From: a virus
Lineage: Duplodnaviria; Heunggongvirae; Uroviricota; Caudoviricetes
Strand: one strand, 5' to 3'
Length of the DNA: 54,288 nt
Virus record (IMG/VR): IMGVR_UViG_2585427966_000002
Shown here piece by piece: positions 2,795 through 44,700 of the stretch. Position numbers and translations under genes: made by a program. A model generated the notes under the pieces. It was not told where the DNA came from and made no database searches. It saw only the letters and a list, made by a program, of their open reading frames with translations. How positions within the stretch are numbered: position 1 is the stretch's first letter; each line of letters begins with the position of its first letter.

Positions 2795-5387
2795 TTGCAT
2801 ATTCCTTAGCCCAGCGGGGCAGTGATAATGTCTTAATAGCTGGCCATTCATCGGTATTCAGGCAGTCAGACAGGGTTCGCAGATTGCGGTGATATTCCTG
2901 TTGACCTGCCAGTTTTGCTTCTTCGCCCATCATGAAAATTTCAACCGGATAACGTCCGCATTCAATAGTTGTGCTGGCAACCAGAAAAACGAAAGTTGGC
3001 TGCACTCCAAACAGTGCTTCATAACCGTCACTGTAGAATGCATCCTGAACGTGATAGCGGTAGTCGTAATAAGCGGTTTTGAATCGTTGAATATCCGCCG
3101 TAGTTTTCACGTCCATGATCCAGTGAAATTCAGGGATAATTTTGTCCGGACGGCACCGACACAAAATTCCTGTTTCAGGATCTTCCCAGTAAATTGATGA
3201 TTCAGCGTGTCCGGCGCTTTCAACAAGCCATTGCCCCAGCGGCAAAGCCATAACGCTTTGATACATGAGTTCAATTTTCCGGCCTTCTTCCGCAGTGATA
3301 ACCGTTTTTCCTGTGCTTGCGCATTCCATCAGAAACGCTTTCTCTTCTTCTTTTCCGGCGTTTGTACGGCGGTTAAATTCAGGTGCTACGATAAAGCGGT
3401 TACTGAATTCTTCCGGTTCAAGTACCCGGCAGTGGAAAGCAGTTCCTAAATCGAGCGTTTTTGTCTTTGTGGTGTCCACGGGGGCATTTTTACGCCACAA
3501 ATATAGTGCCGGAGTATCAGCAATGTCATCGAGCTGAGACTTACTGATACCGGGACCCGCGTGGTAATTCTCATTCGAAATTCCGTAATAAATACCTGGC
3601 TCTATGTCTTCTACGATTACGGGATCTGCGACTTCGCCAGTTTCATCACTGCAATCGTGATGCGGATCGCTGCCAGCATTCTCATTGTGCGGATGTTCAG
3701 CGCCTTCCATTTCCTCCGGATCATTTTCCTTAGCTTCAACCTGACTCTCTTCATCGAATGTTTCCTGGTATGTTGCGTCGCCCATCACCGCACCACAGTC
3801 AGGGCAGTTATCCCCGCCAGTCTGGCCGCAGGCATTGCAGGCTATTTCCGGTTCCTGTTGCACTACTGGCTCAGGTTGATTCATATCTGGGCTGGTTTTT
3901 TCCGTTTCTGGCTGGTTCTGGTACACACAATCGCGAGTCTGGATCCCCTTTACCCATTTCGGATCGTTCGGGTCGCTAATTCCGTCAACAAATTCACCAC
4001 GTGATGCAGCAAGCAATTTATCGGCATCGACAGGATTTTTTGATGGAATGTTTTTCCGGGCTTCATGGAGTTCTGCCCGCAGTTCCTGATATTTCGCATC
4101 AACAGAATTTACCTGTGACTGAGCATCCAGCGGCTGCGTGTCCTGATGATGTTCAGTTGCGTCCGGTTCCATTGTTTCAGCCTCTCCCTGTTCAACTGCC
4201 GTTGTTCCAGATGGTTGCGGTTTTTCTTCATCATCCTGTTTTCCTTCTTCTGTTACTCGCTGCGGCATCGGGGCAGAGGAGCGACCGCAGGCAATATCCA
4301 CGATTTCCGGATCAGGGTTGGCATGATCGGTTTCAGTCAGTACTTTGTTCAGATATTCAGTGACGTGCGCGGGGATGACCTCGATCCCAATTGGTGCTTC
4401 TTTTACGGACGCAACCACGATGGCGCGGGAATAATCCAGCCCGCCAGGCATGGTGATGAATTTGTCGCGGAAAACAGAAAAGGGCGGTTTATTTTCAGCG
4501 ATAATTTCCTCAATGCGTTTAGCGTGTGCCGGATGAAGGTTATAGATGTCCAGATCCATTGAACGGGCCAGTACGCCAGTGGCTACGTCGCGCGCCAGTG
4601 ACGTCAGATCGTGTACGAAACCTTCGCCGCGATCGGTGAGGTTTCCGCCGCCAGCATTAGCACCGGAAGCCGTGCGAGTGATGTGTGAAACACGATTACC
4701 CTTCATCCACTCTTTTGTCAGCAGTCCTCGATCGGTGTAGTCAGCGTTCAGGTATGCTTCGAAAAAAGCAGTTATCAGTCCCAGGTTTGAATTACCAGGA
4801 TTAGGGAAAACTTTGTCAGTGTCACGAACCAGTTTGTGGAGTTCGCGAATTTCCAGCGGGTCGAGCAGGCTGGTTTTGTGGGAAACAGCCAGGGCAGTAA
4901 CAGCCGGTAGTTCTTCAGCCCGAGCAATGTGTAATGCCTGGAGTCCGTCGCGTGAAACGTGCGTTACCGGTTTTTCGCTGCCGTGTTGAGCAAGCCAACG
5001 AATGGGCAGTTCCTGGCCAGAAATTGGGAGTAGCATATTCTCCTCAATCTCAGTCATGTCTTCGCCGTTGACGTTGGTATTGCCTTGATAATGAGCGTTG
5101 TCTGGTGCTGCTCCCGGTTTTAGTTCCCATGTCATGGAGTCTTTGCTGAGTTGATAGCGTTCACTCCAGGTAAAATCGATCTCACCTTCAGCGGGCAGGT
5201 CATTAACGACAGGAAAATTCGTGGCAACAGCTTTAAAATAGCTGCTCAGTTTTTTACCTGACTTAACGATCAGGTAGTCCAGAGTGGCACAGGTCGATTC
5301 AAAATCGTTGCTTGCCCACAGGACGACGTCAGGTTCACCGGATGATTTTTTCGCTTTCCGTAACAGGAAGAGTGGTTTTGTGCTCAT
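2787..5387 (-). CDS. recE: RecE exonuclease VIII (866 aa)
   Basis: 866-aa ORF, the length I recall for RecE; acidic low-complexity middle region and C-terminal nuclease region; recE-recT operon arrangement. Confidence 0.9.
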
Positions 5388-12171: not shown

Positions 12172-12429
12172 GTGCCGGAAGAAATGGATTTGCTTACATG
12201 CCATCTCGATGGTGTAACTGAAACATATGCTGAGGGATGGAACGCTTGCCGCGCTGCCCTGCTTCAGGGCAAAGGGGAGCCCGGGAAACAAGTTCGCGAA
12301 TTGACAATGCTGGTTAAACAATTGGTTAGTCAACTGAAGAAAGCGAAACCGGGCTGCAAATTGCCGGATAAAGTGATGGACTACCTGGAGCGAAGCGGAC
12401 TTATAAGCGTGGAGGATGTTTCACGATGA
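12172..12429 (+). CDS. Hypothetical protein (85 aa, non-ATG start in track)
   Basis: Track ORF only; the start codon is uncertain. Confidence 0.3.
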   Translation: MPEEMDLLTCHLDGVTETYAEGWNACRAALLQGKGEPGKQVRELTMLVKQLVSQLKKAKPGCKLPDKVMDYLERSGLISVEDVSR

Positions 12430-12509
12430 CCTGGACTGAAGCATTCACAACGGTAGGAATTGCGATGGCGGTGGCGCTGGTTGTGTATTCGATTTGCCGC
12501 TGGGGATAA
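12426..12509 (+). CDS. Candidate 27-aa hydrophobic peptide (MTWTEAFTTVGIAMAVALVVYSICRWG)
   Basis: ATG overlaps the stop of the preceding ORF (TGATG); single predicted TM helix; not in track (<60 aa). Confidence 0.25.
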   Translation: MTWTEAFTTVGIAMAVALVVYSICRWG

Positions 12510-12562
12510 AAACGATTTGCGGGAAAAGGATAGTTAAGTAGAATTGCTGCGGGTGCTTGAGG

Positions 12563-12598
12563 CTATCTGCCTTGGGCATGAACACCAAAGGCAGATAG
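12563..12598. repeat. Perfect 11-bp inverted repeat (CTATCTGCCTT ... AAGGCAGATAG) with 14-nt spacer
   Basis: Read directly; no T-tract follows, so not a classic terminator; lies at the left edge of the low-GC cassette. Confidence 0.6.
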
Positions 12599-12819
12599 AG
12601 AAAAACCCACCCGACTATAAATCAAAGTGTATTACCCCCATTTGTTGGACGATGAAATGGGTTTAGTTAACTATGTCGGTATCGACATGACTAAAACAAC
12701 CTTAAATTGCTCGATTAATAGACAAGTAGTTTTGAAAGATTAAATTTATGCGATCCGGTATTTTCAAGGGATAGCCTTTATGAGGTTATCTTATGGGGTT
12801 AAAACATCAAGAACAGTTG

Positions 12820-12828
12820 TGTTATAAT
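12820..12828 (+). promoter_or_regulatory. Extended -10 promoter element (TGTTATAAT) upstream of the methyltransferase gene
   Basis: TGnTATAAT about 32 bp upstream of the ATG at 12861; -35 weak. Confidence 0.35.
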
Positions 12829-12860
12829 ACATAGAAACTAATAAGAGACGTTGCAACTAT

Positions 12861-14012
12861 ATGAATGTAATAGATTTGTTTTCTGGCGTTGGAGGTCTAA
12901 GTCTTGGTGCTGCACGTGCTGGATTTGATGTTAAAATGGCAGTTGAAATTGATCAACATGCTATTAATACTCACGCAATTAATTTTCCAAGAAGTTTGCA
13001 CGTCCAAGAAGATGTTTCTTTACTAAATGCAGAAATAATTAAGGGTTTTTTTAAAAACGATATGCCCATAGATGGTATTATTGGCGGTCCTCCGTGCCAA
13101 GGATTTAGTTCAATAGGCAAGGGGAATCCTGATGATAGCAGGAATCAGCTTTACATGCATTTCTACCGTTTAGTATCAGAATTACAGCCATTATTCTTTT
13201 TGGCAGAAAATGTTCCAGGTATTATGCAAGAGAAATATTCTGGCATTAGAAATAAAGCATTTAATTTGGTTAGCGGTGATTATGATATTCTTGATCCCAT
13301 CAAGGTAAAAGCATCTGATTATGGTGCTCCAACTATTCGAACTAGATATTTTTTTATCGGTGTAAAAAAATCATTGAAGCTTGATATTTCAGATGAAGTA
13401 TTTATGCCTAAAATGATTGATCCGGTTACTGTAAAAGATGCTTTGTATGGATTACCAGATATTATCGATGCCAATTGGCAATCAGACTCTGAGAGTTGGC
13501 GAACAATTAAAAAAGATCGAAAAGGGGGATTTTATGAAAAATTATGGGGGCAGATCCCTCGGAATGTTGGTGATACAGAATCGATCGCTAAGTTAAAAAA
13601 TAATATCATATCTGGATGTACCGGAACATTACATAGCAAAATCGTCCAAGAGCGTTATGCTTCCTTATCTTTTGGGGAAACTGATAAAATTTCAAGATCT
13701 ACAAGATTAGATCCAAATGGTTTTTGCCCGACTTTAAGGGCGGGAACCGCTAGAGATAAAGGAAGCTTTCAAGCCGTCAGGCCGATCCACCCTTATCATC
13801 CAAGAGTGATTACACCAAGAGAAGCTGCTAGATTACAAGGCTTCCCTGATTGGTTTCGCTTTCATGTAACTAAATGGCATAGTTTCAGACAAATAGGAAA
13901 TAGCGTGTCACCAATAGTTGCTGAATATATATTAAAGGGGCTGTACAATTTATTAAATAAAAGAGTACAGCCCGAATATTTAAACCATAATTCTTTGGAA
14001 GTTAGGGTATAA
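12861..14012 (+). CDS. DNA (cytosine-5)-methyltransferase (383 aa)
   Basis: Motif I FSGVGGLSLG, motif IV GGPPCQGFS (catalytic Cys), motif VI ENVPGI, C-terminal QIGNSVSP; AT-rich codon usage. Confidence 0.9.
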   Translation: MNVIDLFSGVGGLSLGAARAGFDVKMAVEIDQHAINTHAINFPRSLHVQEDVSLLNAEIIKGFFKNDMPIDGIIGGPPCQGFSSIGKGNPDDSRNQLYMHFYRLVSELQPLFFLAENVPGIMQEKYSGIRNKAFNLVSGDYDILDPIKVKASDYGAPTIRTRYFFIGVKKSLKLDISDEVFMPKMIDPVTVKDALYGLPDIIDANWQSDSESWRTIKKDRKGGFYEKLWGQIPRNVGDTESIAKLKNNIISGCTGTLHSKIVQERYASLSFGETDKISRSTRLDPNGFCPTLRAGTARDKGSFQAVRPIHPYHPRVITPREAARLQGFPDWFRFHVTKWHSFRQIGNSVSPIVAEYILKGLYNLLNKRVQPEYLNHNSLEVRV

Positions 14013-14969
14013 CCTATAGTATTTATAATAGTTATCCCGTTCATTTTCGTTTAAAGAGAACTCTTCAGCGGCTGCCTGATATGCTTCTTTATCAGGCAGT
14101 TTACTATCTAAATTTATCTTTTCTTTAATTGTTAGTGTTGGTATTGCTATTTCTTGCACGTCTTCCCAATTTGTTGAATAAAATTGCCAGTTAGAAAGGT
14201 CGCATGCCTTAGATAACTCTATATATTCTTGTTCTGAGGAGAAAAAACCTGATATTGTCAACATGGTATGACTGCCATCATTATATTGATTTAAGGATAA
14301 TGGGTAATACTGAATCTTATCCTTACGTCCTGAAAGACCACGTTCTATTGCTGATCTAAAAGCGTTTGTAATAATTCGTATTAAAAGAGCTTTAATCTTA
14401 CGATCTGAAAGATCTGCATTTGATATCTGAAGATTAAAATCAAGATACTTTTTCCCAAGCAATGATTTTAATGAATTAATAAAAGCTTCTTTAAAAATAT
14501 CTAAACTTTCTCCAACTCTACGTTGGTAATAAGAACTAGGATTTATGGGGAAGGTGACCTTCAAAATATCAAAAGAGCTTACTTTAGTACTTAGTAAGTG
14601 TATATCATCTAGATCCGTTTGTATTTTTTTCGGGGAGGCATAGTCTAACCATGTTATTGATGGTTTAGAAAAACTATAATCAAGAATAAAGTCATGAGCT
14701 GATATTAGCTTACAATCAATACAATTATAAGGCAAATTATATTTTTGTCTGATGTGAGTAGACTCTTGTTCTTCGAGAGAAATCATATCAGAAAGAGCGA
14801 TACGATTATGCATGATTCTAAAATCTTCAAGCATCGGACCACCAAAACCTATATATGTATATTCTTGAATATTTAGTCTTTTGCTTAAGAGGTTTAGGCT
14901 TTCGAGAAAAATCTCTCTATCAATAGACTTATTATGCCTTAAGTGATAGGGAATGTATTGTCCAGACAT
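13980..14969 (-). CDS. Hypothetical protein (329 aa), partner of the GHKL ATPase
   Basis: ATG overlaps the upstream GHKL gene stop (ATGA), GAGGTG RBS; 3' end overlaps the MTase 3' end by 33 bp, convergent; no motifs recognised. Confidence 0.7.
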   Translation of the reverse strand: MSGQYIPYHLRHNKSIDREIFLESLNLLSKRLNIQEYTYIGFGGPMLEDFRIMHNRIALSDMISLEEQESTHIRQKYNLPYNCIDCKLISAHDFILDYSFSKPSITWLDYASPKKIQTDLDDIHLLSTKVSSFDILKVTFPINPSSYYQRRVGESLDIFKEAFINSLKSLLGKKYLDFNLQISNADLSDRKIKALLIRIITNAFRSAIERGLSGRKDKIQYYPLSLNQYNDGSHTMLTISGFFSSEQEYIELSKACDLSNWQFYSTNWEDVQEIAIPTLTIKEKINLDSKLPDKEAYQAAAEEFSLNENERDNYYKYYRLYPNFQRIMV

Positions 14970-16360
14970 CACTTCACCTCTTCAATCACCGTATCAAAGC
15001 ATTGCATCCCCACATCAGAAGCGCTAGCATCTTCATGTCCAAAGAAATATTTAGATAAAATTTTAACATCTTCTTTCTCTCTGGTGAAGATTATTCGTAC
15101 AGTAGAGCTTTTTTTTACTGGGGTAGGCAGCTTAGGTGTATATCGCCACTCATTTTTGTTTCTATTAGGGTTGGACCAGTTATTTTTTTTATCTTCTGGA
15201 GTTGATTGTGGGGTAATTTCAAATAAAGATTGAGCTTCATGTGACTGAGCTGACTTAAGTAATTTTTTCCCTTCTTCAAGATGCTCACCTTTCCACTGAT
15301 TGGTGAATCGAATAAAATGCATCATCCCTTCAATCATTTTATTTCGTACATCATTGTACAATGTAGAACTAAGATCGACACCTCGTTTCGTTGTTGTTAT
15401 TGGTAATTTTTCTGGGTTTTTACTGGTAAAGCGAACAACCCCAGAAATTGCTATAAATTGGGTATGAAACCTTGGTACATTAGCAAAGCCCCAACCTGTG
15501 AGATGTGTCTTATCACAATATAGAACAACGCGGTCATTGCAAATGACAGTCCATCCAGCATCATCAGAACTCCTTTTTTCTAAAACATCATCATTGTCAT
15601 CTTCTAAATTTTTATAGAAGCCAACAACTAAATCGATATCAACATCGTCTATTTTAGCTTTATATATGTATGGTTCTATTTTAGAATGATCAGTTATGAT
15701 GTTAATCGGATTATGTTCAACAACAACTCCATTTAATTCTATTTTAAATCCTTTTTGAATAATAAATGACAATGAGTGTTTTATCTGTAAAAAGAGATCA
15801 GTAAGATATGTGCTCTCATTAAATTTTTGTGCCACATTAGAATGGAGTTTTTTTATCTCTATAGTTGTGCCTGTTGGATTTTTGTTATCATAGTCACTCT
15901 CGTGCATCGGTATTTTCCAACCATCACCATCGATCCAATCAGGTGTTATATCTACAGTGAATGCGCCATCGGGATTATTCGATTGTATTGAGCAATCTCT
16001 ACCCATTTTAAAAATGGCTCTTTTCATACCAATACCATAGACGCCAACGGTGCCTTCATTTTCTTCTTCTTTTTGATGGGGTCGTCCCATTTTAAAAGCA
16101 TATTCTCGGAAGCTTTTAGGGATACCTCCGCAATTGTCTTCTATAATAAAGACATCTTTATTAATCGTAAGTTTCGCATAAAATCCTTCATATGGTTTTG
16201 AAGTTTTTTTTGTGTCTTTTATTGTACGTAAAGCCCCATCGACGCAGTTATCAAGCAGATCAAGTATGGCATCGTTTAAGTCGATATCTCGAGTTAGCAT
16301 ACTTACAAAAAATCTTTTACTAGGACTAAAGTCTGCTGTTGGAGTCGTGTTCTCAGTCAT
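14969..16360 (-). CDS. GHKL-family ATPase (Bergerat fold; MutL/MORC/Hsp90-like N-terminal domain), 463 aa
   Basis: N-box DLLDNCVDGA, G1 box IEDNCGGIP, G2 box GVYGIGMKRAIFKMG in the N-terminal ~130 aa; C-terminal ~300 aa unassigned. Confidence 0.8.
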   Translation of the reverse strand: MTENTTPTADFSPSKRFFVSMLTRDIDLNDAILDLLDNCVDGALRTIKDTKKTSKPYEGFYAKLTINKDVFIIEDNCGGIPKSFREYAFKMGRPHQKEEENEGTVGVYGIGMKRAIFKMGRDCSIQSNNPDGAFTVDITPDWIDGDGWKIPMHESDYDNKNPTGTTIEIKKLHSNVAQKFNESTYLTDLFLQIKHSLSFIIQKGFKIELNGVVVEHNPINIITDHSKIEPYIYKAKIDDVDIDLVVGFYKNLEDDNDDVLEKRSSDDAGWTVICNDRVVLYCDKTHLTGWGFANVPRFHTQFIAISGVVRFTSKNPEKLPITTTKRGVDLSSTLYNDVRNKMIEGMMHFIRFTNQWKGEHLEEGKKLLKSAQSHEAQSLFEITPQSTPEDKKNNWSNPNRNKNEWRYTPKLPTPVKKSSTVRIIFTREKEDVKILSKYFFGHEDASASDVGMQCFDTVIEEVK

Positions 16361-16422
16361 AATTTACTCTCTATGTGTTTGGGAAAATAAATACCTTAAG
16401 TGCAAATTGTTGATTTTAAACG

Positions 16423-16436
16423 CTTCGCATGCGAAG
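16423..16436. promoter_or_regulatory. Perfect 14-bp palindrome CTTCGCATGCGAAG overlapping a TTGACT -35-like hexamer for the minus-strand GHKL operon
   Basis: Read directly; about 65-75 bp upstream of the GHKL ATG at 16360. Confidence 0.4.
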
Positions 16437-16859
16437 TCAACGATGTTAAGAAAGAAAGTGCATGTGATCTAACAGTATGTTTTTAAAAAAAGATTAGCTT
16501 TATGAGAATTCAGGACTGAATCCCGTGAGAGGAAAATAACATATGTTATTGTTGCATTGCTGTGTTGTTTGGGATTTGTTGCACCATTCTGGCGTTGGTA
16601 TATCTAGTTCGTTGTTCATTTTGTTAATTGTACAACAGGCAGACAACAGAGAGCTTTTAGCCTAGTTAGCTTACGAAATTAAACAACTAAGATTATCGGC
16701 GGGGAGTGGTCACCGCTACTCTTTGGCTAGGAGACTTCAACGCAACCGCACACAACCAGCTTCGGCGGGTTTTGTTTTTTCCTGGCATTCTGGTTTACAA
16801 TTTGCGTGCTAGCTTGAACAACTGGCATCTGCTGCACTGCGCCATCGAGAGATTGAGAA

Positions 16860-39668: not shown

Positions 39669-40366
39669 TGCAGGACATACAACAGGAAACGCTGAATGAA
39701 TGCATTCGTGCGGAGCAGTCTGCCAGCGTGGTGCTCTGGGAAATCGACCTGACAGAGGTAGACGGGGATCGCTACTTTTTCTGTAATGAGCAGAACGAAA
39801 AAGGTGAGTCTGTCACCTGGCAGAGTCGGCAGTATCAGGCCTATCCCATTCAGGGGAGTGGATTTGAGATGAACGGCAAGGGCAGTGCTGCCCGTCCGAC
39901 ACTGACGGTCTCTAACCTGCACGGCATGATCACCGGGATGGCGGAAGATCTGCAGAGTCTGGTCGGCGGAACGGTGGTCCGGCGTAAGGTTTACGCCCGC
40001 TTTCTGGATGCGGTGAACTTCGTCAACGGAAACAGCGAAGCCGATCCGGAGCAGGAGGTGATCAGCCGCTGGCGCATCGAGCAGTGCAGCGAACTGAGCG
40101 CGGTCAGTGCCTCTTTTGTACTGTCCACGCCGACTGAAACGGATGGCGCTGTTTTTCCGGGACGTATCATGCTGGCCAACACCTGCACCTGGACCTATCG
40201 CGGCGATGAGTGCGGTTATAGCGGTCCGGCGGTCGCGGATGAATATGACCAGCCGACGTCCGATATCACGAAGGATAAATGCAGCAAATGCCTGAGTGGC
40301 TGTAAGTTTCGCAATAACGTCGGCAACTTTGGCGGCTTCCTTTCCATTAACAAACTTTCGCAGTAA
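39668..40366 (+). CDS. Minor tail protein L (232 aa), near-identical to lambda L as I recall it
   Basis: [31 protein letters not shown]... matches remembered lambda L. Confidence 0.85.
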   Translation: MQDIQQETLNECIRAEQSASVVLWEIDLTEVDGDRYFFCNEQNEKGESVTWQSRQYQAYPIQGSGFEMNGKGSAARPTLTVSNLHGMITGMAEDLQSLVGGTVVRRKVYARFLDAVNFVNGNSEADPEQEVISRWRIEQCSELSAVSASFVLSTPTETDGAVFPGRIMLANTCTWTYRGDECGYSGPAVADEYDQPTSDITKDKCSKCLSGCKFRNNVGNFGGFLSINKLSQ

Positions 40367-40371
40367 ATCCC

Positions 40372-41115
40372 ATGACACAGACAGAATCAGCGATTCTGGC
40401 GCACGCCCGGCGATGTGCGCCAGCGGAGTCGTGCGGCTTCGTGGTAAGCACGCCGGAGGGGGAAAGATATTTTCCCGGCGTGAATATTTCCGGTGAGCCG
40501 GAGGATTATTTCCGGATGGCTCCGGAGGACTGGCTGCAGGCAGAAATGCAGGGTGAGATTGTGGCGCTGGTCCACAGCCACCCCGGTGGTCTGCCCTGGC
40601 TGAGTGAGGCTGACCGGCGGCTGCAGGTGCAGAGTGATTTGCCGTGGTGGCTGGTCTGCCGGGGGGCGATTCATAAGTTCCGCTGTGTGCCGCATCTCAC
40701 CGGGCGGCGCTTTGAGCACGGGGTGACGGACTGTTACACGCTGTTCCGGGATGCTTATCATCTGGCGGGGATTGAGATGCCGGATTTTCATCGCGGGGAT
40801 GACTGGTGGCGTCACGGTCAGAATCTCTATCTGGATAATCTGGAGGCCACAGGGCTGTATCAGGTGCCGTTGTCAGCGGCGCAGCCGGGCGATGTGCTGC
40901 TGTGCTGTTTTGGTTCATCGGTGCCGAATCATGCCGCCATTTACTGTGGTGACGGTGAGCTGCTGCACCATATTCCTGAACAACTGAGCAAACGAGAGAG
41001 GTACACCGACAAATGGCAGCGACGCACACACTCCCTCTGGCGTCACCGGGCATGGCGCGCATCTGCCTTTACGGGGATTTACAACGATTTGGTCGCCGCA
41101 TCGACCTTCGTGTGA
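40372..41115 (+). CDS. Tail assembly protein K (JAMM/MPN plus NlpC/P60-like), 247 aa
   Basis: HSHPGG JAMM motif; matches remembered lambda K. Confidence 0.85.
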   Translation: MTQTESAILAHARRCAPAESCGFVVSTPEGERYFPGVNISGEPEDYFRMAPEDWLQAEMQGEIVALVHSHPGGLPWLSEADRRLQVQSDLPWWLVCRGAIHKFRCVPHLTGRRFEHGVTDCYTLFRDAYHLAGIEMPDFHRGDDWWRHGQNLYLDNLEATGLYQVPLSAAQPGDVLLCCFGSSVPNHAAIYCGDGELLHHIPEQLSKRERYTDKWQRRTHSLWRHRAWRASAFTGIYNDLVAASTFV

Positions 41116-41684
41116 AAACGGGGGCTGAAGCCATCCGGGCACTGGCCACACAGCTCCCGGCGTTTCGTCAGAAACTGAGCGACGGCTGGTATCAGGTACG
41201 GATTGCCGGGCGGGACGTCAGCACGTCCGGGTTAACGGCGCAGTTACATGAGACTCTGCCTGATGGCGCTGTGATTCATATTGTTCCCAGAGTCGCCGGG
41301 GCCAAGTCAGGTGGCGTATTCCAGATTGTCCTGGGGGCTGCCGCCATTGCCGGATCATTCTTTACCGCCGGAGCCACCCTTGCAGCATGGGGGGCAGCCA
41401 TTGGGGCCGGTGGTATGACCGGCATCCTGTTTTCTCTCGGTGCCAGTATGGTCCTCGGTGGTGTGGCGCAGATGCTGGCACCGAAAGCCAGAACTCCCCG
41501 TACACAGACAACGGATAACGGTAAGCAGAACACCTATTTCTCCTCACTGGATAACATGGTTGCCCAGGGCAATGTTCTGCCTGTTCTGTACGGGGAAATG
41601 CGCGTGGGGTCACGCGTGGTTTCTCAGGAGATCAGCACGGCAGACGAAGGGGACGGTGGTCAGGTTGTGGTGATTGGTCGCTGA
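41013..41684 (+). CDS. Tail assembly protein I (223 aa)
   Basis: MAATHTLPLASPGMARICLYGDLQRFGRRIDLRV... matches remembered lambda I; overlaps the K 3' end. Confidence 0.8.
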   Translation: MAATHTLPLASPGMARICLYGDLQRFGRRIDLRVKTGAEAIRALATQLPAFRQKLSDGWYQVRIAGRDVSTSGLTAQLHETLPDGAVIHIVPRVAGAKSGGVFQIVLGAAAIAGSFFTAGATLAAWGAAIGAGGMTGILFSLGASMVLGGVAQMLAPKARTPRTQTTDNGKQNTYFSSLDNMVAQGNVLPVLYGEMRVGSRVVSQEISTADEGDGGQVVVIGR

Positions 41685-41703
41685 TGCAAAATGTTTTATG
41701 TGA

Positions 41704-41725
41704 AACCGCCTGCGGGCGGTTTTGT
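41704..41725 (+). terminator. Hairpin (aaccgcc-tgcg-ggcggtt-ttgtc)
   Basis: Read directly between I and J; weak T-tract. Confidence 0.4.
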
Positions 41726-41744
41726 CATTTATGGAGCGTGAGGA

Positions 41745-44700
41745 ATGAGTAAAGGAAGCAGTAAGGGGCATACCCCGCGCGAAGCGAAGGACAACCTGAA
41801 GTCCACGCAGTTGCTGAGTGTGATCGATGCCATCAGCGAAGGGCCGGTTGAAGGTCCGGTGGATGGATTAAAAAGCGTGCTGCTGAACAGTACGCCGGTG
41901 CTGGACACTGAGGGGAATACCAACATCTCCGGTGTCACGGTGGTGTTCCGTGCCGGTGAGCAGGAGCAGACACCGCCGGAGGGGTTTGAATCCTCCGGCT
42001 CCGAGACGGTGCTGGGTACGGAAGTGAAGTACGACACGCCGATTACCCGGACCATCACGTCTGCAAACATCGACCGTCTGCGCTTTACCTTCGGTGTGCA
42101 GGCACTGGTGGAAACCACCTCAAAGGGGGACCGGAATCCGTCGGAAGTCCGCCTGCTGGTTCAGATACAGCGTAACGGTGGCTGGGTGACGGAAAAAGAC
42201 ATCACCATTAAAGGCAAAACCACCTCGCAGTATCTGGCCTCGGTGGTGGTGGATAACCTGCCGCCGCGCCCGTTTAATATCCGGATGCGCAGGATGACGC
42301 CGGACAGCACCACAGACCAGCTGCAGAACAAAACGCTCTGGTCGTCATACACCGAAATCATCGATGTGAAACAGTGCTACCCGAACACGGCACTGGTCGG
42401 CGTACAGGTGGACTCGGAGCAGTTCGGCAGCCAGCAGGTGAGTCGTAATTATCATCTTCGCGGGCGCATTCTGCAGGTGCCGTCGAACTATAACCCGCAG
42501 ACGCGACAATACAGCGGTATCTGGGACGGAACGTTTAAGCCAGCATACAGCAACAACATGGCCTGGTGTCTGTGGGATATGCTGACCCATCCGCGCTACG
42601 GCATGGGGAAACGTCTTGGTGCGGCGGATGTGGACAAATGGGCGCTGTATGTCATCGGCCAGTACTGCGACCAGTCAGTGCCGGACGGCTTTGGCGGCAC
42701 GGAGCCGCGCATCACCTGTAATGCGTACCTGACCACACAGCGCAAGGCGTGGGACGTTCTCAGTGATTTCTGCTCGGCGATGCGCTGTATGCCGGTATGG
42801 AACGGGCAGACGCTGACGTTCGTGCAGGACCGACCGTCGGATAAGGCGTGGACCTATAACCGCAGTAATGTGGTGATGCCGGATGATGGCGCGCCGTTCC
42901 GCTACAGCTTCAGCGCCCTGAAAGACCGCCATAATGCCGTTGAGGTGAACTGGATTGACCCGAACAACGGCTGGGAGACGGCGACAGAGCTTGTTGAAGA
43001 TACGCAGGCCATTGCCCGTTACGGTCGTAATGTTACGAAGATGGATGCCTTTGGCTGTACCAGCCGGGGGCAGGCACACCGCGCCGGGCTGTGGCTGATT
43101 AAAACGGAGCTGCTGGAGACGCAGACCGTGGATTTCAGCGTCGGCGCAGAAGGGCTTCGCCATGTACCGGGCGATGTTATTGAAATCTGCGATGATGACT
43201 ATGCCGGTATCAGCACCGGTGGTCGTGTGCTGGCGGTGAACAGCCAGACCCGGACGCTGACGCTCGACCGTGAAATCACGCTGCCATCCTCCGGTACCAC
43301 GCTGATAAGCCTGGTTGACGGAAGTGGCAATCCGGTCAGCGTGGAGGTTCAGTCCGTCAACGACGGCGTGAAGGTAAAAGTGAGCCGTGTTCCTGAGGGT
43401 GTTGCTGAATACAGCGTATGGGGGCTGAAGCTGCCGACGCTGCGCCAGCGCCTGTTCCGCTGCGTGAGTATCCGTGAGAACGACGACGGCACGTATGCCA
43501 TCACCGCCGTGCAGCATGTGCCGGAAAAAGAGGCCATCGTGGATAACGGGGCGCACTTTGACGGCGAACAGAGTGGCACGGTGAATGGTGTCACGCCGCC
43601 AGCGGTGCAGCACCTGACCGCAGAAGTCACTGCAGACAGCGGGGAATATCAGGTGCTGGCGCGATGGGACACACCGAAGGTGGTGAAGGGCGTGAGCTTC
43701 CTGCTCCGTCTGACCGTAACAGCGGACGACGGCAGTGAGCGGCTGGTCAGCACGGCCCGGACGACGGAAACCACATACCGCTTCACGCAACTGGCGCTGG
43801 GGAACTACAGGCTGACAGTCCGGGCGGTAAATGCGTGGGGGCAGCAGGGCGATGCGGCGTCGGTATCGTTCCGGATTGCCGCACCGGCAGCACCGTCGAG
43901 GATTGAGCTGACGCCGGGCTATTTTCAGATAACCGCCACGCCGCATCTTGCCATTTATGACCCGACGGTACAGTTTGAGTTCTGGTTCTCGGAAAAGCGG
44001 ATTACCGATATCAGGCAGGTTGAAACCACAGCCCGCTATCTTGGCACGGCGCTGTACTGGATAGCCGCCAGTATCAATATCAAACCGGGCCATGATTATT
44101 ATTTTTACATCCGCAGTGTGAACACCGTTGGCAAATCGGCATTTGTGGAGGCTGTTGGCCAGCCGAGTGATGATGCATCCGGCTATCTGGATTTTTTCAA
44201 AGGAGAGATAGGGAAAAGCCATCTGGCTCAGGAGCTGTGGACGCAGATTGATAACGGTCAGCTTGCGCCTGACCTGGCTGAAATCAGGACGTCCATTACG
44301 GATGTCAGCAATGAAATCACGCAGACCGTCAATAAGAAACTGGAAGACCAGAGTGCGGCAATTCAGCAGATACAGAAGGTTCAGGTTGATACAAATAATA
44401 ACCTGAACAGCATGTGGGCTGTGAAGCTGCAGCAGATGCAGGACGGACGCCTTTATATCGCGGGTATTGGTGCCGGTATTGAGAATACCCCTGACGGTAT
44501 GCAGAGTCAGGTGCTGCTGGCGGCGGACAGGATTGCGATGATTAATCCTGCGAATGGCAACACAAAGCCGATGTTTGTTGGTCAGGGCGATCAGATATTT
44601 ATGAATGAAGTGTTCCTGAAATATCTGACGGCTCCCACCATTACCAGCGGCGGTAATCCTCCGGCATTTTCCCTGACACCGGACGGGCGGCTGACGGCAA

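Follow-up and report, generated by a model that had tools for sequence, protein, structure and literature searches.

ATPases of the MORC and paraMORC type are known from prokaryotic genomes and were predicted in 2008 to belong to restriction-modification (RM) contexts. In that work (Iyer, Abhiman and Aravind 2008, PMC2292703), these proteins combine GHKL and S5 domains, with intact ATP motifs and a MORC S5 motif; they are linked to a cytosine methylase, often together with Vsr, and are laterally mobile. The same work describes an SF2 helicase and a nuclease of the restriction-endonuclease-fold, HNH or HKD type in most MORC operons, and methylases with no helicase in a minority of the neighborhoods. 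Fusions of paraMORC to a Ymh (HEPN) domain in RM neighborhoods were likened to PrrC and RloC (Anantharaman et al. 2013, PMC3710099), and PD-lambda-5 was described as a compact prophage 'RM+Abi' system, Abi standing for abortive infection (Vassallo et al. 2022, PMC9519451). A parallel trio built from other Pfam families was reported in 2021, in which a cytosine-5 (C5) methyltransferase (MTase) accompanies the HEF_HK / Response_reg_2 duplet, in which a GHKL protein (HATPase_c_3) is paired with a small alpha/beta protein; the two are tightly linked (91.6%) and were read as a two-component signaling system (Bellieny-Rabelo et al. 2021, PMC8011034). Another combination of GHKL and C5 MTase genes, possibly related to this trio, is found in supplementary file 7 of PMC9122126. 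Here we analyzed a three-gene cassette in IMG/VR record IMGVR_UViG_2585427966_000002, a 54,288-nucleotide stretch of Caudoviricetes DNA that we refer to as the window. The cassette shares with the prokaryotic MORC systems its type of ATPase, the linked cytosine methylase, the frequent Vsr and the mobility, and its combination of a MORC-like ATPase, a Methyltransf_35 protein and a C5 MTase appears to be new as a computationally predicted linked unit.

The cassette encodes the C5 MTase (12861..14012, plus strand, 383 aa), the MORC-like ATPase (14969..16360, minus strand, 463 aa) and a partner protein (13980..14969, minus strand, 329 aa counted from the ATG), each called as an open reading frame (ORF) and matched by Pfam profiles PF00145, PF13589 and PF20553, respectively. 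The positions, strands and lengths agree with those in the original prediction, and the MTase motifs (FSGVGG, PCQ, ENV) and ATPase boxes (DLLDNCVDGA, IEDNCGGIP, GVYGIG) listed there were found in the sequence, as was the 33-bp overlap between the convergent 3' ends of the MTase and partner genes (13980..14012). Because of the linkage of the genes, their co-evolution and conservation, their location in a hotspot and the existence of paralogues with swapped effectors, we propose, at about an even chance, that the cassette is a methylation-keyed (RM-like) defense module of three genes, carried as prophage cargo and without a recognizable nuclease.

The ATPase was matched by HATPase_c_3 (PF13589) with 37.5 bits, against a cut-off of 25. 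It contains GHKL motif I (D34-x3-N38-x2-D41, in D34LLDNCVDGA), motif II (D75-N-C-G78-G79, in I73EDNCGGIP), motif III (G106-x2-G109-x-G111, in G106VYGIG) and motif IV (G164-T165). The motif residues were invariant in 102 system-linked homologues, with the exception of G164 (100/102) and T165 (77 T, 24 V), and K325 was also invariant. The AlphaFold2 (AF2) model of the protein (pLDDT 82) shows GHKL and S5-like domains followed by a helical C-terminal region, and its best fold matches were MORC3, SMCHD1 and MORC2. The ATPase has the domain order that marks a MORC protein, in which an S5-fold transducer bearing a conserved basic residue comes after the GHKL domain. The S5 motif GhXhhpXXRhl, which defines the MORC family according to Iyer et al. 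(PMC2292703), occurs as GWTVICNDRVV at aa 269-279; among system-linked GHKL proteins it was shared by 97 of the 101 short and 7 of the 8 long ones, with an estimated chance occurrence of about 0.004 per protein of this length. Its motifs and modeled fold identify the ATPase as a GHKL+S5 enzyme of the MORC type whose ATP site is intact. The earlier description of the protein as MutL/MORC-like was thus right for MORC and failed for MutL, since neither the C-terminal dimerization/endonuclease domain of MutL nor a closest similarity to the MutL N-terminal domain was found. The C-terminal ~133 aa (residues 333-463) had no Pfam match at E <= 10 and no conserved acidic or histidine cluster, and a nuclease in this region was rejected; in the same search no HEPN domain was fused to the C-terminus.

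The partner protein aligned over residues 1-328 to positions 1-308 of the 309 in Pfam Methyltransf_35 (PF20553, 'putative O-methyltransferase'; E 2e-89, 300.4 bits, cut-off 27). Its AF2 model was confident (pLDDT 89, pTM 0.87) and displayed the class I S-adenosylmethionine (SAM)-methyltransferase fold, with a Rossmann-like seven-stranded sheet and the beta6/beta7 hairpin; the nearest structural neighbors were nucleic-acid base MTases. The cofactor motifs, assigned from the secondary structure of the model and not from a superposition, are G41-F-G43-G44-P after strand 38-42, E66 at the end of strand 61-66 and D109-Y110 at the end of strand 104-109. Among 102 sequences the loop was always G, S or A, position 66 was E or D in all, and D109 was kept in 101. 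The partner thus has the fold of a SAM-methyltransferase, and its cofactor-type pocket is conserved. K14, D109 and E283 were conserved; the strict K-D-K-E tetrad of 2'-O-ribose methyltransferases was not upheld, as position 137 is K in 73/102 and R in 22/102. The original prediction had proposed this protein as the nuclease and had named beforehand a non-nuclease fold as the result that would count against it; the class I SAM-methyltransferase fold is such a result, and Pfam, NCBIfam and PADLOC revealed no nuclease domain in either minus-strand protein, nor was a nuclease fold among the matches of the partner. A profile search of PDB sequences with the partner recovered no sequence relative, the sole matches being to HMG-CoA synthase at chance level. 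The family comprises 2126 representatives at 50% identity (E <= 1e-3) from Proteobacteria, Cyanobacteria, Firmicutes, Chloroflexi, Verrucomicrobia and others, and nearly all of the best-scoring 150 of these were stand-alone proteins of ~320-345 aa.

These folds bear on the possibility that the two minus-strand genes encode a cytoplasmic signaling pair, with the GHKL protein as the kinase and the Rossmann-like partner as the receiver. This interpretation was given for the parallel trio, in which a C5 MTase is joined by a GHKL protein and a Rossmann-like partner (PMC8011034), and the cassette resembles that trio in its layout. However, the HEF_HK / Response_reg_2 proteins belong to PF19191 and PF19192, both of which were absent from our Pfam scan at E <= 1, whereas the partner belongs to PF20553, and the predicted folds of the cassette proteins do not support a two-component reading. 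We consider a signaling pair extremely unlikely.

The MTase was matched by PF00145 over residues 1-361 (profile 1-322 of 324; E 2.6e-61, 208.3 bits, cut-off 22) and by PADLOC MTase_II (E 2e-98), and has essentially the same sequence as PDB 3G7U, a structural-genomics entry (E 1.3e-254). It carries F7SGVGG (motif I), P78-C79-Q80 (IV), E116-N117-V118 (VI) and R160/R162 (VIII, RxR). Among 102 system-linked homologues the catalytic motif residues were invariant or missing in at most one sequence, and many residues of the presumed target-recognition region were at least 97% conserved. The system-linked MTases may share one specificity; neither the source names nor the papers looked up give a sequence specificity for the MTase. 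As the ATP-site residues, the catalytic residues of the MTase and the pocket residues of the partner are all conserved, we infer that the three proteins are active enzymes.

We surveyed the linkage of the genes from each of the three sides. For the partner-side survey, one genome per species was scanned, and ORFs were called in the returned loci and searched with our own profiles. The 80 loci that this yielded belong to Proteobacteria, Cyanobacteria, Firmicutes, Acidobacteria, Verrucomicrobia, Chloroflexi, Latescibacterota and further phyla. The ATPase gene was located directly upstream of the partner gene on the same strand in 78 of them, and a C5 MTase gene was present in 67, including 62 in which it lies no more than 1.5 kb from the pair. 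The 13 loci lacking an MTase comprise five on truncated contigs, six cyanobacterial loci and two from other taxa. The ATPase-side survey covered 73 IMG/VR viral contigs and recovered the partner directly downstream in 68 and the MTase in 72, while the MTase-side survey returned three relatives (~57% identity), all three with an adjoining GHKL gene. When the 80 genome and 73 viral loci were pooled, the ATPase was directly 5' of the partner in 146 of the 153, and 139 had a C5 MTase of a single lineage, bearing out the predicted MTase linkage. In a Rhodoferax metagenome-assembled genome (MAG; L018, 6616-13709), two ATPase and Methyltransf_35 pairs flank a single C5 MTase, the second pair being much more divergent.

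Co-evolution and gene junctions were evaluated over 101 non-identical triads. The pairwise-distance matrices correlated at 0.88 for ATPase and partner, 0.65 for ATPase and MTase and 0.62 for partner and MTase. The ATPase stop and partner start overlapped by 1-8 nt in 75 triads, most commonly by 4 nt (53), followed by 8 nt (13) and 1 nt (9). The ATPase and partner genes are, on this evidence from junctions and distances, translationally coupled and co-evolving. In the window the junction reads GTGAAGTGATGTCT, in which ATG and TGA share one base (TGATG); the overlap of stop and start described earlier is real, although its form is TGATG (1 nt) and not ATGA. An in-frame GTG lies one codon 5' of the partner ATG. 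The MTase gene was convergent in 55 triads, overlapping by 6-50 bp in 42 of them, and was located upstream in the same direction in 34. In these respects the cassette resembles classical Type II RM systems with a Dcm-type MTase and Vsr, in which a conserved C5 MTase lies beside, and often converges on, presumed restriction genes, Vsr is frequent and the GC-poor unit is mobile. It differs from them in having no endonuclease fold (PD-(D/E)xK, HNH, GIY-YIG, PLD) and in encoding an ATPase and a SAM-fold protein instead. It likewise has neither the helicase nor the nuclease of most described MORC operons (PMC2292703), and an obligate partner with the SAM-MTase fold was not found described in the consulted sections of that paper.

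Vsr genes were present in 26 of the 80 genome loci, about a third, which favors a role in repair: a MutL-like ATPase would stimulate the Vsr-type repair of T:G mismatches arising from deaminated 5-methylcytosine, with the partner as an auxiliary. MutL does stimulate Vsr in E. coli (reviewed in PMC2292703), and MutL with MutH or Vsr is, like the cassette, a case of a GHKL+S5 ATPase tied to the DNA methylation state. Unlike the MutL/MutH/Vsr set, the cassette has no MutL C-terminal domain, MutS or MutH, its ATPase fold is closer to MORC, and it is mobile accessory cargo and not part of a housekeeping set. A repair accessory is in our judgment very unlikely.

A longer GHKL paralogue (546-610 aa) with the same motifs was found beside the same MTase lineage at eight genome loci (L021, L022, L025, L026, L030, L032, L038 and L042) and five viral loci (L156, L157 and L159-L161); L165 also carries one, and the listed set spans 546-650 aa. 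The long paralogue replaces the ATPase-partner pair in the five viral loci and accompanies it in the eight genome loci, where the paralogue and the pair flank one MTase. The C-terminus of the L030 paralogue is a Hypoth_Ymh HEPN domain (Pfam 3.6e-35) that also matched PADLOC Aga_HEPN and PD-Lambda-3_B. Other long paralogues matched the C-terminal part of PADLOC PD-Lambda-5_A, the best at 4e-15 and 1.7e-23 and the remaining scanned ones more weakly. The C-termini of the paralogues are exchangeable, which argues that the GHKL module is constant and the output domains are swapped, with the Methyltransf_35 protein in the output position. The long paralogues look like single-protein versions of the same system. 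The cassette shares with the paraMORC-HEPN (Ymh) and PD-lambda-5 'RM+Abi' systems (PMC3710099, PMC9519451) the MTase and GHKL lineages and the prophage-borne cargo, and is distinguished from them by an ATPase with no fused effector and by a separate methyltransferase-fold protein in place of an RNase-type domain.

The fusions of HEPN and PD-lambda-5_A-like domains beside the same MTase lineage also favor a module that serves as a guard or for addiction, comparable to PrrC/RloC or to 'RM+Abi' systems, in which the ATPase-partner pair would be a latent toxin restrained by the active MTase or by the methylated genome. Inhibition of methylation by a phage (e.g. SAM destruction) or loss of the cassette would then trigger abortive infection or post-segregational killing. 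The same analogy was proposed for paraMORC-HEPN fusions in RM neighborhoods (PMC3710099), and the predicted SAM-binding fold of the partner could report SAM levels. A natural variant bears on this possibility. In E. coli O157:H7 F6294 (L170, locus 3001-4760), one deletion takes out the entire MTase gene along with the part of the partner gene that encodes the C-terminal two-thirds, and the ATPase gene is intact; among 173 E. coli genomes, no other lacks the MTase. The double loss fits a harmful effector arm. On the other hand, the cyanobacterial pairs with no MTase speak against obligatory neutralization by a neighboring MTase. The guard module overlaps with the defense module that we propose and differs from it in trigger and target alone; we regard it as a serious though unlikely alternative.

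The location of the trio supports the defense module. Among the viral contigs, 21 P2-like prophages carry the trio between the replication gene A and the portal gene Q, and this old/tin site of P2 is a defense-system hotspot according to Vassallo et al. and Rousset et al. (PMC9519451). Other loci lie near integrases or near AbiE, Mrr-type or ScoMcrA-type genes. The cassette genes correspond to ECs1953-1955 in E. coli O157:H7 Sakai and EDL933. In a Sakai microarray study, ECs1954 and ECs1955 decreased 2.6-fold and 3.2-fold, respectively, at the transition to stationary phase (PMC2241611), so these genes are transcribed in the uninduced Sakai lysogen. The restriction or defense function in the original prediction is thus supported in part, by the MTase link and the hotspot, and weakened by the lack of a nuclease.

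The same evidence bears on a modification pathway that would benefit the phage, in which the C5 MTase and the partner, the latter loaded by the ATPase, would set two marks or a compound mark (such as N4,5-dimethylcytosine) to shield the DNA from host restriction or to exert epigenetic control. The cassette is prophage-borne, two of its proteins have a methyltransferase fold in which a pocket of the cofactor type is conserved, and the closest structural neighbors of the partner are nucleic-acid base MTases, as such a pathway would have it. Yet the trio is common at non-phage chromosomal sites in many phyla and occupies slots used for defense cargo, the sister ATPases carry HEPN domains and not modification enzymes, and the pair has a convergent promoter of its own, from which it is expressed in the lysogen, and does not belong to a lytic operon. 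We also know of no DNA MTase that requires a MORC-type ATPase. A modification pathway is accordingly quite unlikely in our estimation.

In the mechanism that we propose for the defense module, methylation of a single sequence motif by the MTase would mark the DNA of host and prophage. The MORC-like ATPase would act as a dimeric clamp driven by ATP; it would read whether DNA bears this mark and would then control the partner. The partner is assigned the role of effector arm because the sister systems have HEPN or PD-lambda-5_A-like domains fused to the ATPase at that position. The output is probably not classical DNA cleavage. Our best guess is that nucleic acid is modified in a SAM-dependent reaction, either foreign DNA or RNA with growth arrest as the consequence, or that DNA is blocked without a nuclease, as in BREX. 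BREX resembles this model in that a methyltransferase marks self and an arm containing an ATPase blocks the phage with no evident nuclease; it differs in its components (PglX, PglZ, BrxC, BrxL) and in having six or more genes compared with three. A more specific version, which we offer tentatively and hold to be rather improbable, is that the MORC clamp senses the absence of the cytosine-5 methyl mark and directs the SAM-dependent transferase onto unmarked foreign DNA or onto host or phage RNA, with immunity resulting from modification or from MORC-type silencing.

Several observations weigh against the defense module. No nuclease or other established effector domain was found in the ATPase or the partner by Pfam, NCBIfam, PADLOC or fold matches, so the output step is a guess. 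Position 34 in motif I of the ATPase is Asp, which distinguishes it from described MORC ATPases and from GHKL enzymes in general, where a catalytic Glu is usual. At eight fully flanked loci, of which six are cyanobacterial, the pair occurs with no MTase within 6-8 kb, an awkward finding for a toxic arm that is strictly protected by the MTase, unless the MTase is encoded elsewhere in the genome. The cyanobacterial pair-only loci (L010, L012-L016), with no C5 MTase within 5-8 kb where the flank extends that far, are from Scytonema, Nostoc, Microcystaceae, Kastovskya and an unclassified cyanobacterial MAG. Of 5426 complete E. coli genomes, 172 carry the cassette, and the identity never falls below 99%, indicating one prophage lineage; co-occurrence in E. 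coli, being clonal, is weak evidence, and so is the deletion in F6294, a single event. The arguments from neighborhood and hotspot amount to guilt by association. A literature search, with most subscription journals outside its coverage, found no study that describes or tests the trio or that shows defense, toxicity or activity.

The cassette was also compared with catalogued systems. Neither the ATPase nor the partner matched any model of PADLOC-DB v2.0.0 at E <= 1, and NCBIfam likewise has no model of the trio, in keeping with the earlier view that this is not a catalogued system. Membership in Mza, Shedu/paraMORC3, PD-lambda-5 and Hma was rejected; NCBIfam MzaB, for example, scored 12.4 bits against a cut-off of 850.

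The cassette is AT-rich, as predicted: the GC content of 12861-16360 is 0.348, compared with 0.495 in the left flank, 0.447 in the right flank and 0.460 in the whole window, and this is the lowest-GC 3.5-kb stretch within the window. A promoter-like site precedes the MTase gene (12799..12828, plus strand; TTAAAA, an 18-nt spacer and TG-TATAAT), 33 nt 5' of the start and with 10 of 12 consensus positions matched. Promoter-like sites in the AT-rich region were not enriched relative to shuffled sequence, so the support for this site comes from its position alone. A second promoter-like site (16413..16440, minus strand; TTGACT, a 16-nt spacer and TAAAAT) lies 53 nt 5' of the ATPase start, and both of its hexamers are kept (TTGACA ... 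TAAAAT) in the 85% identical homologue L101. The perfect 14-bp palindrome CTTCGCATGCGAAG at 16423-16436 overlaps this site and occurs once in the window; a conserved operator was rejected, since the palindrome is not kept in L101.

The cassette is flanked by DUF1627 and DUF977 genes on the left and by DUF1367, YbcO and Q-type antiterminator genes on the right, and the slot between the same flanks holds other cargo in related lambdoid phages. An identical cassette is located in Sakai prophage Sp10, ~3 kb downstream of the replication genes. No tRNA gene was detected in the window by ARAGORN, whereas Sp10 carries tRNA-Ile and tRNA-Arg directly after the Q gene (L001 12041-12293), so the window is a related prophage and not Sp10 itself. 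Just upstream of the cassette, the region 12426-12608 is ~91% identical to a region annotated as 'sokW antisense RNA / L0139' in phage 933W and many Shiga toxin (Stx) phages; it contains a 27-aa hydrophobic ORF (12426-12509) and a 14-bp stem (12563-12598), and a search for a hok/sok RNA gave no Rfam family match. The GC content of 40001-44000 is 58-61%, well above that of the rest of the window (~46%), and this part probably represents a separate module of the mosaic prophage.

The trio is widespread across phyla and is present in lambdoid and P2-like prophages, including the best-validated defense hotspot of P2, yet it is absent from PADLOC. If the cassette is a defense system, its effector arm would be a methyltransferase-fold enzyme driven by a MORC-type ATPase, and to our knowledge no characterized system has this combination. 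If the MORC clamp does sense the absent methyl mark and direct the transferase, the trio would be the prokaryotic parallel to the way in which MORC ATPases are coupled to DNA methylation in eukaryotic genome defense, and that coupling may even have evolved from it. The trio would further offer a tractable bacterial model, for which a crystal structure of the MTase already exists (3G7U), of how a MORC ATPase reads DNA methylation, a question relevant to the silencing of transposons and viruses in eukaryotes.

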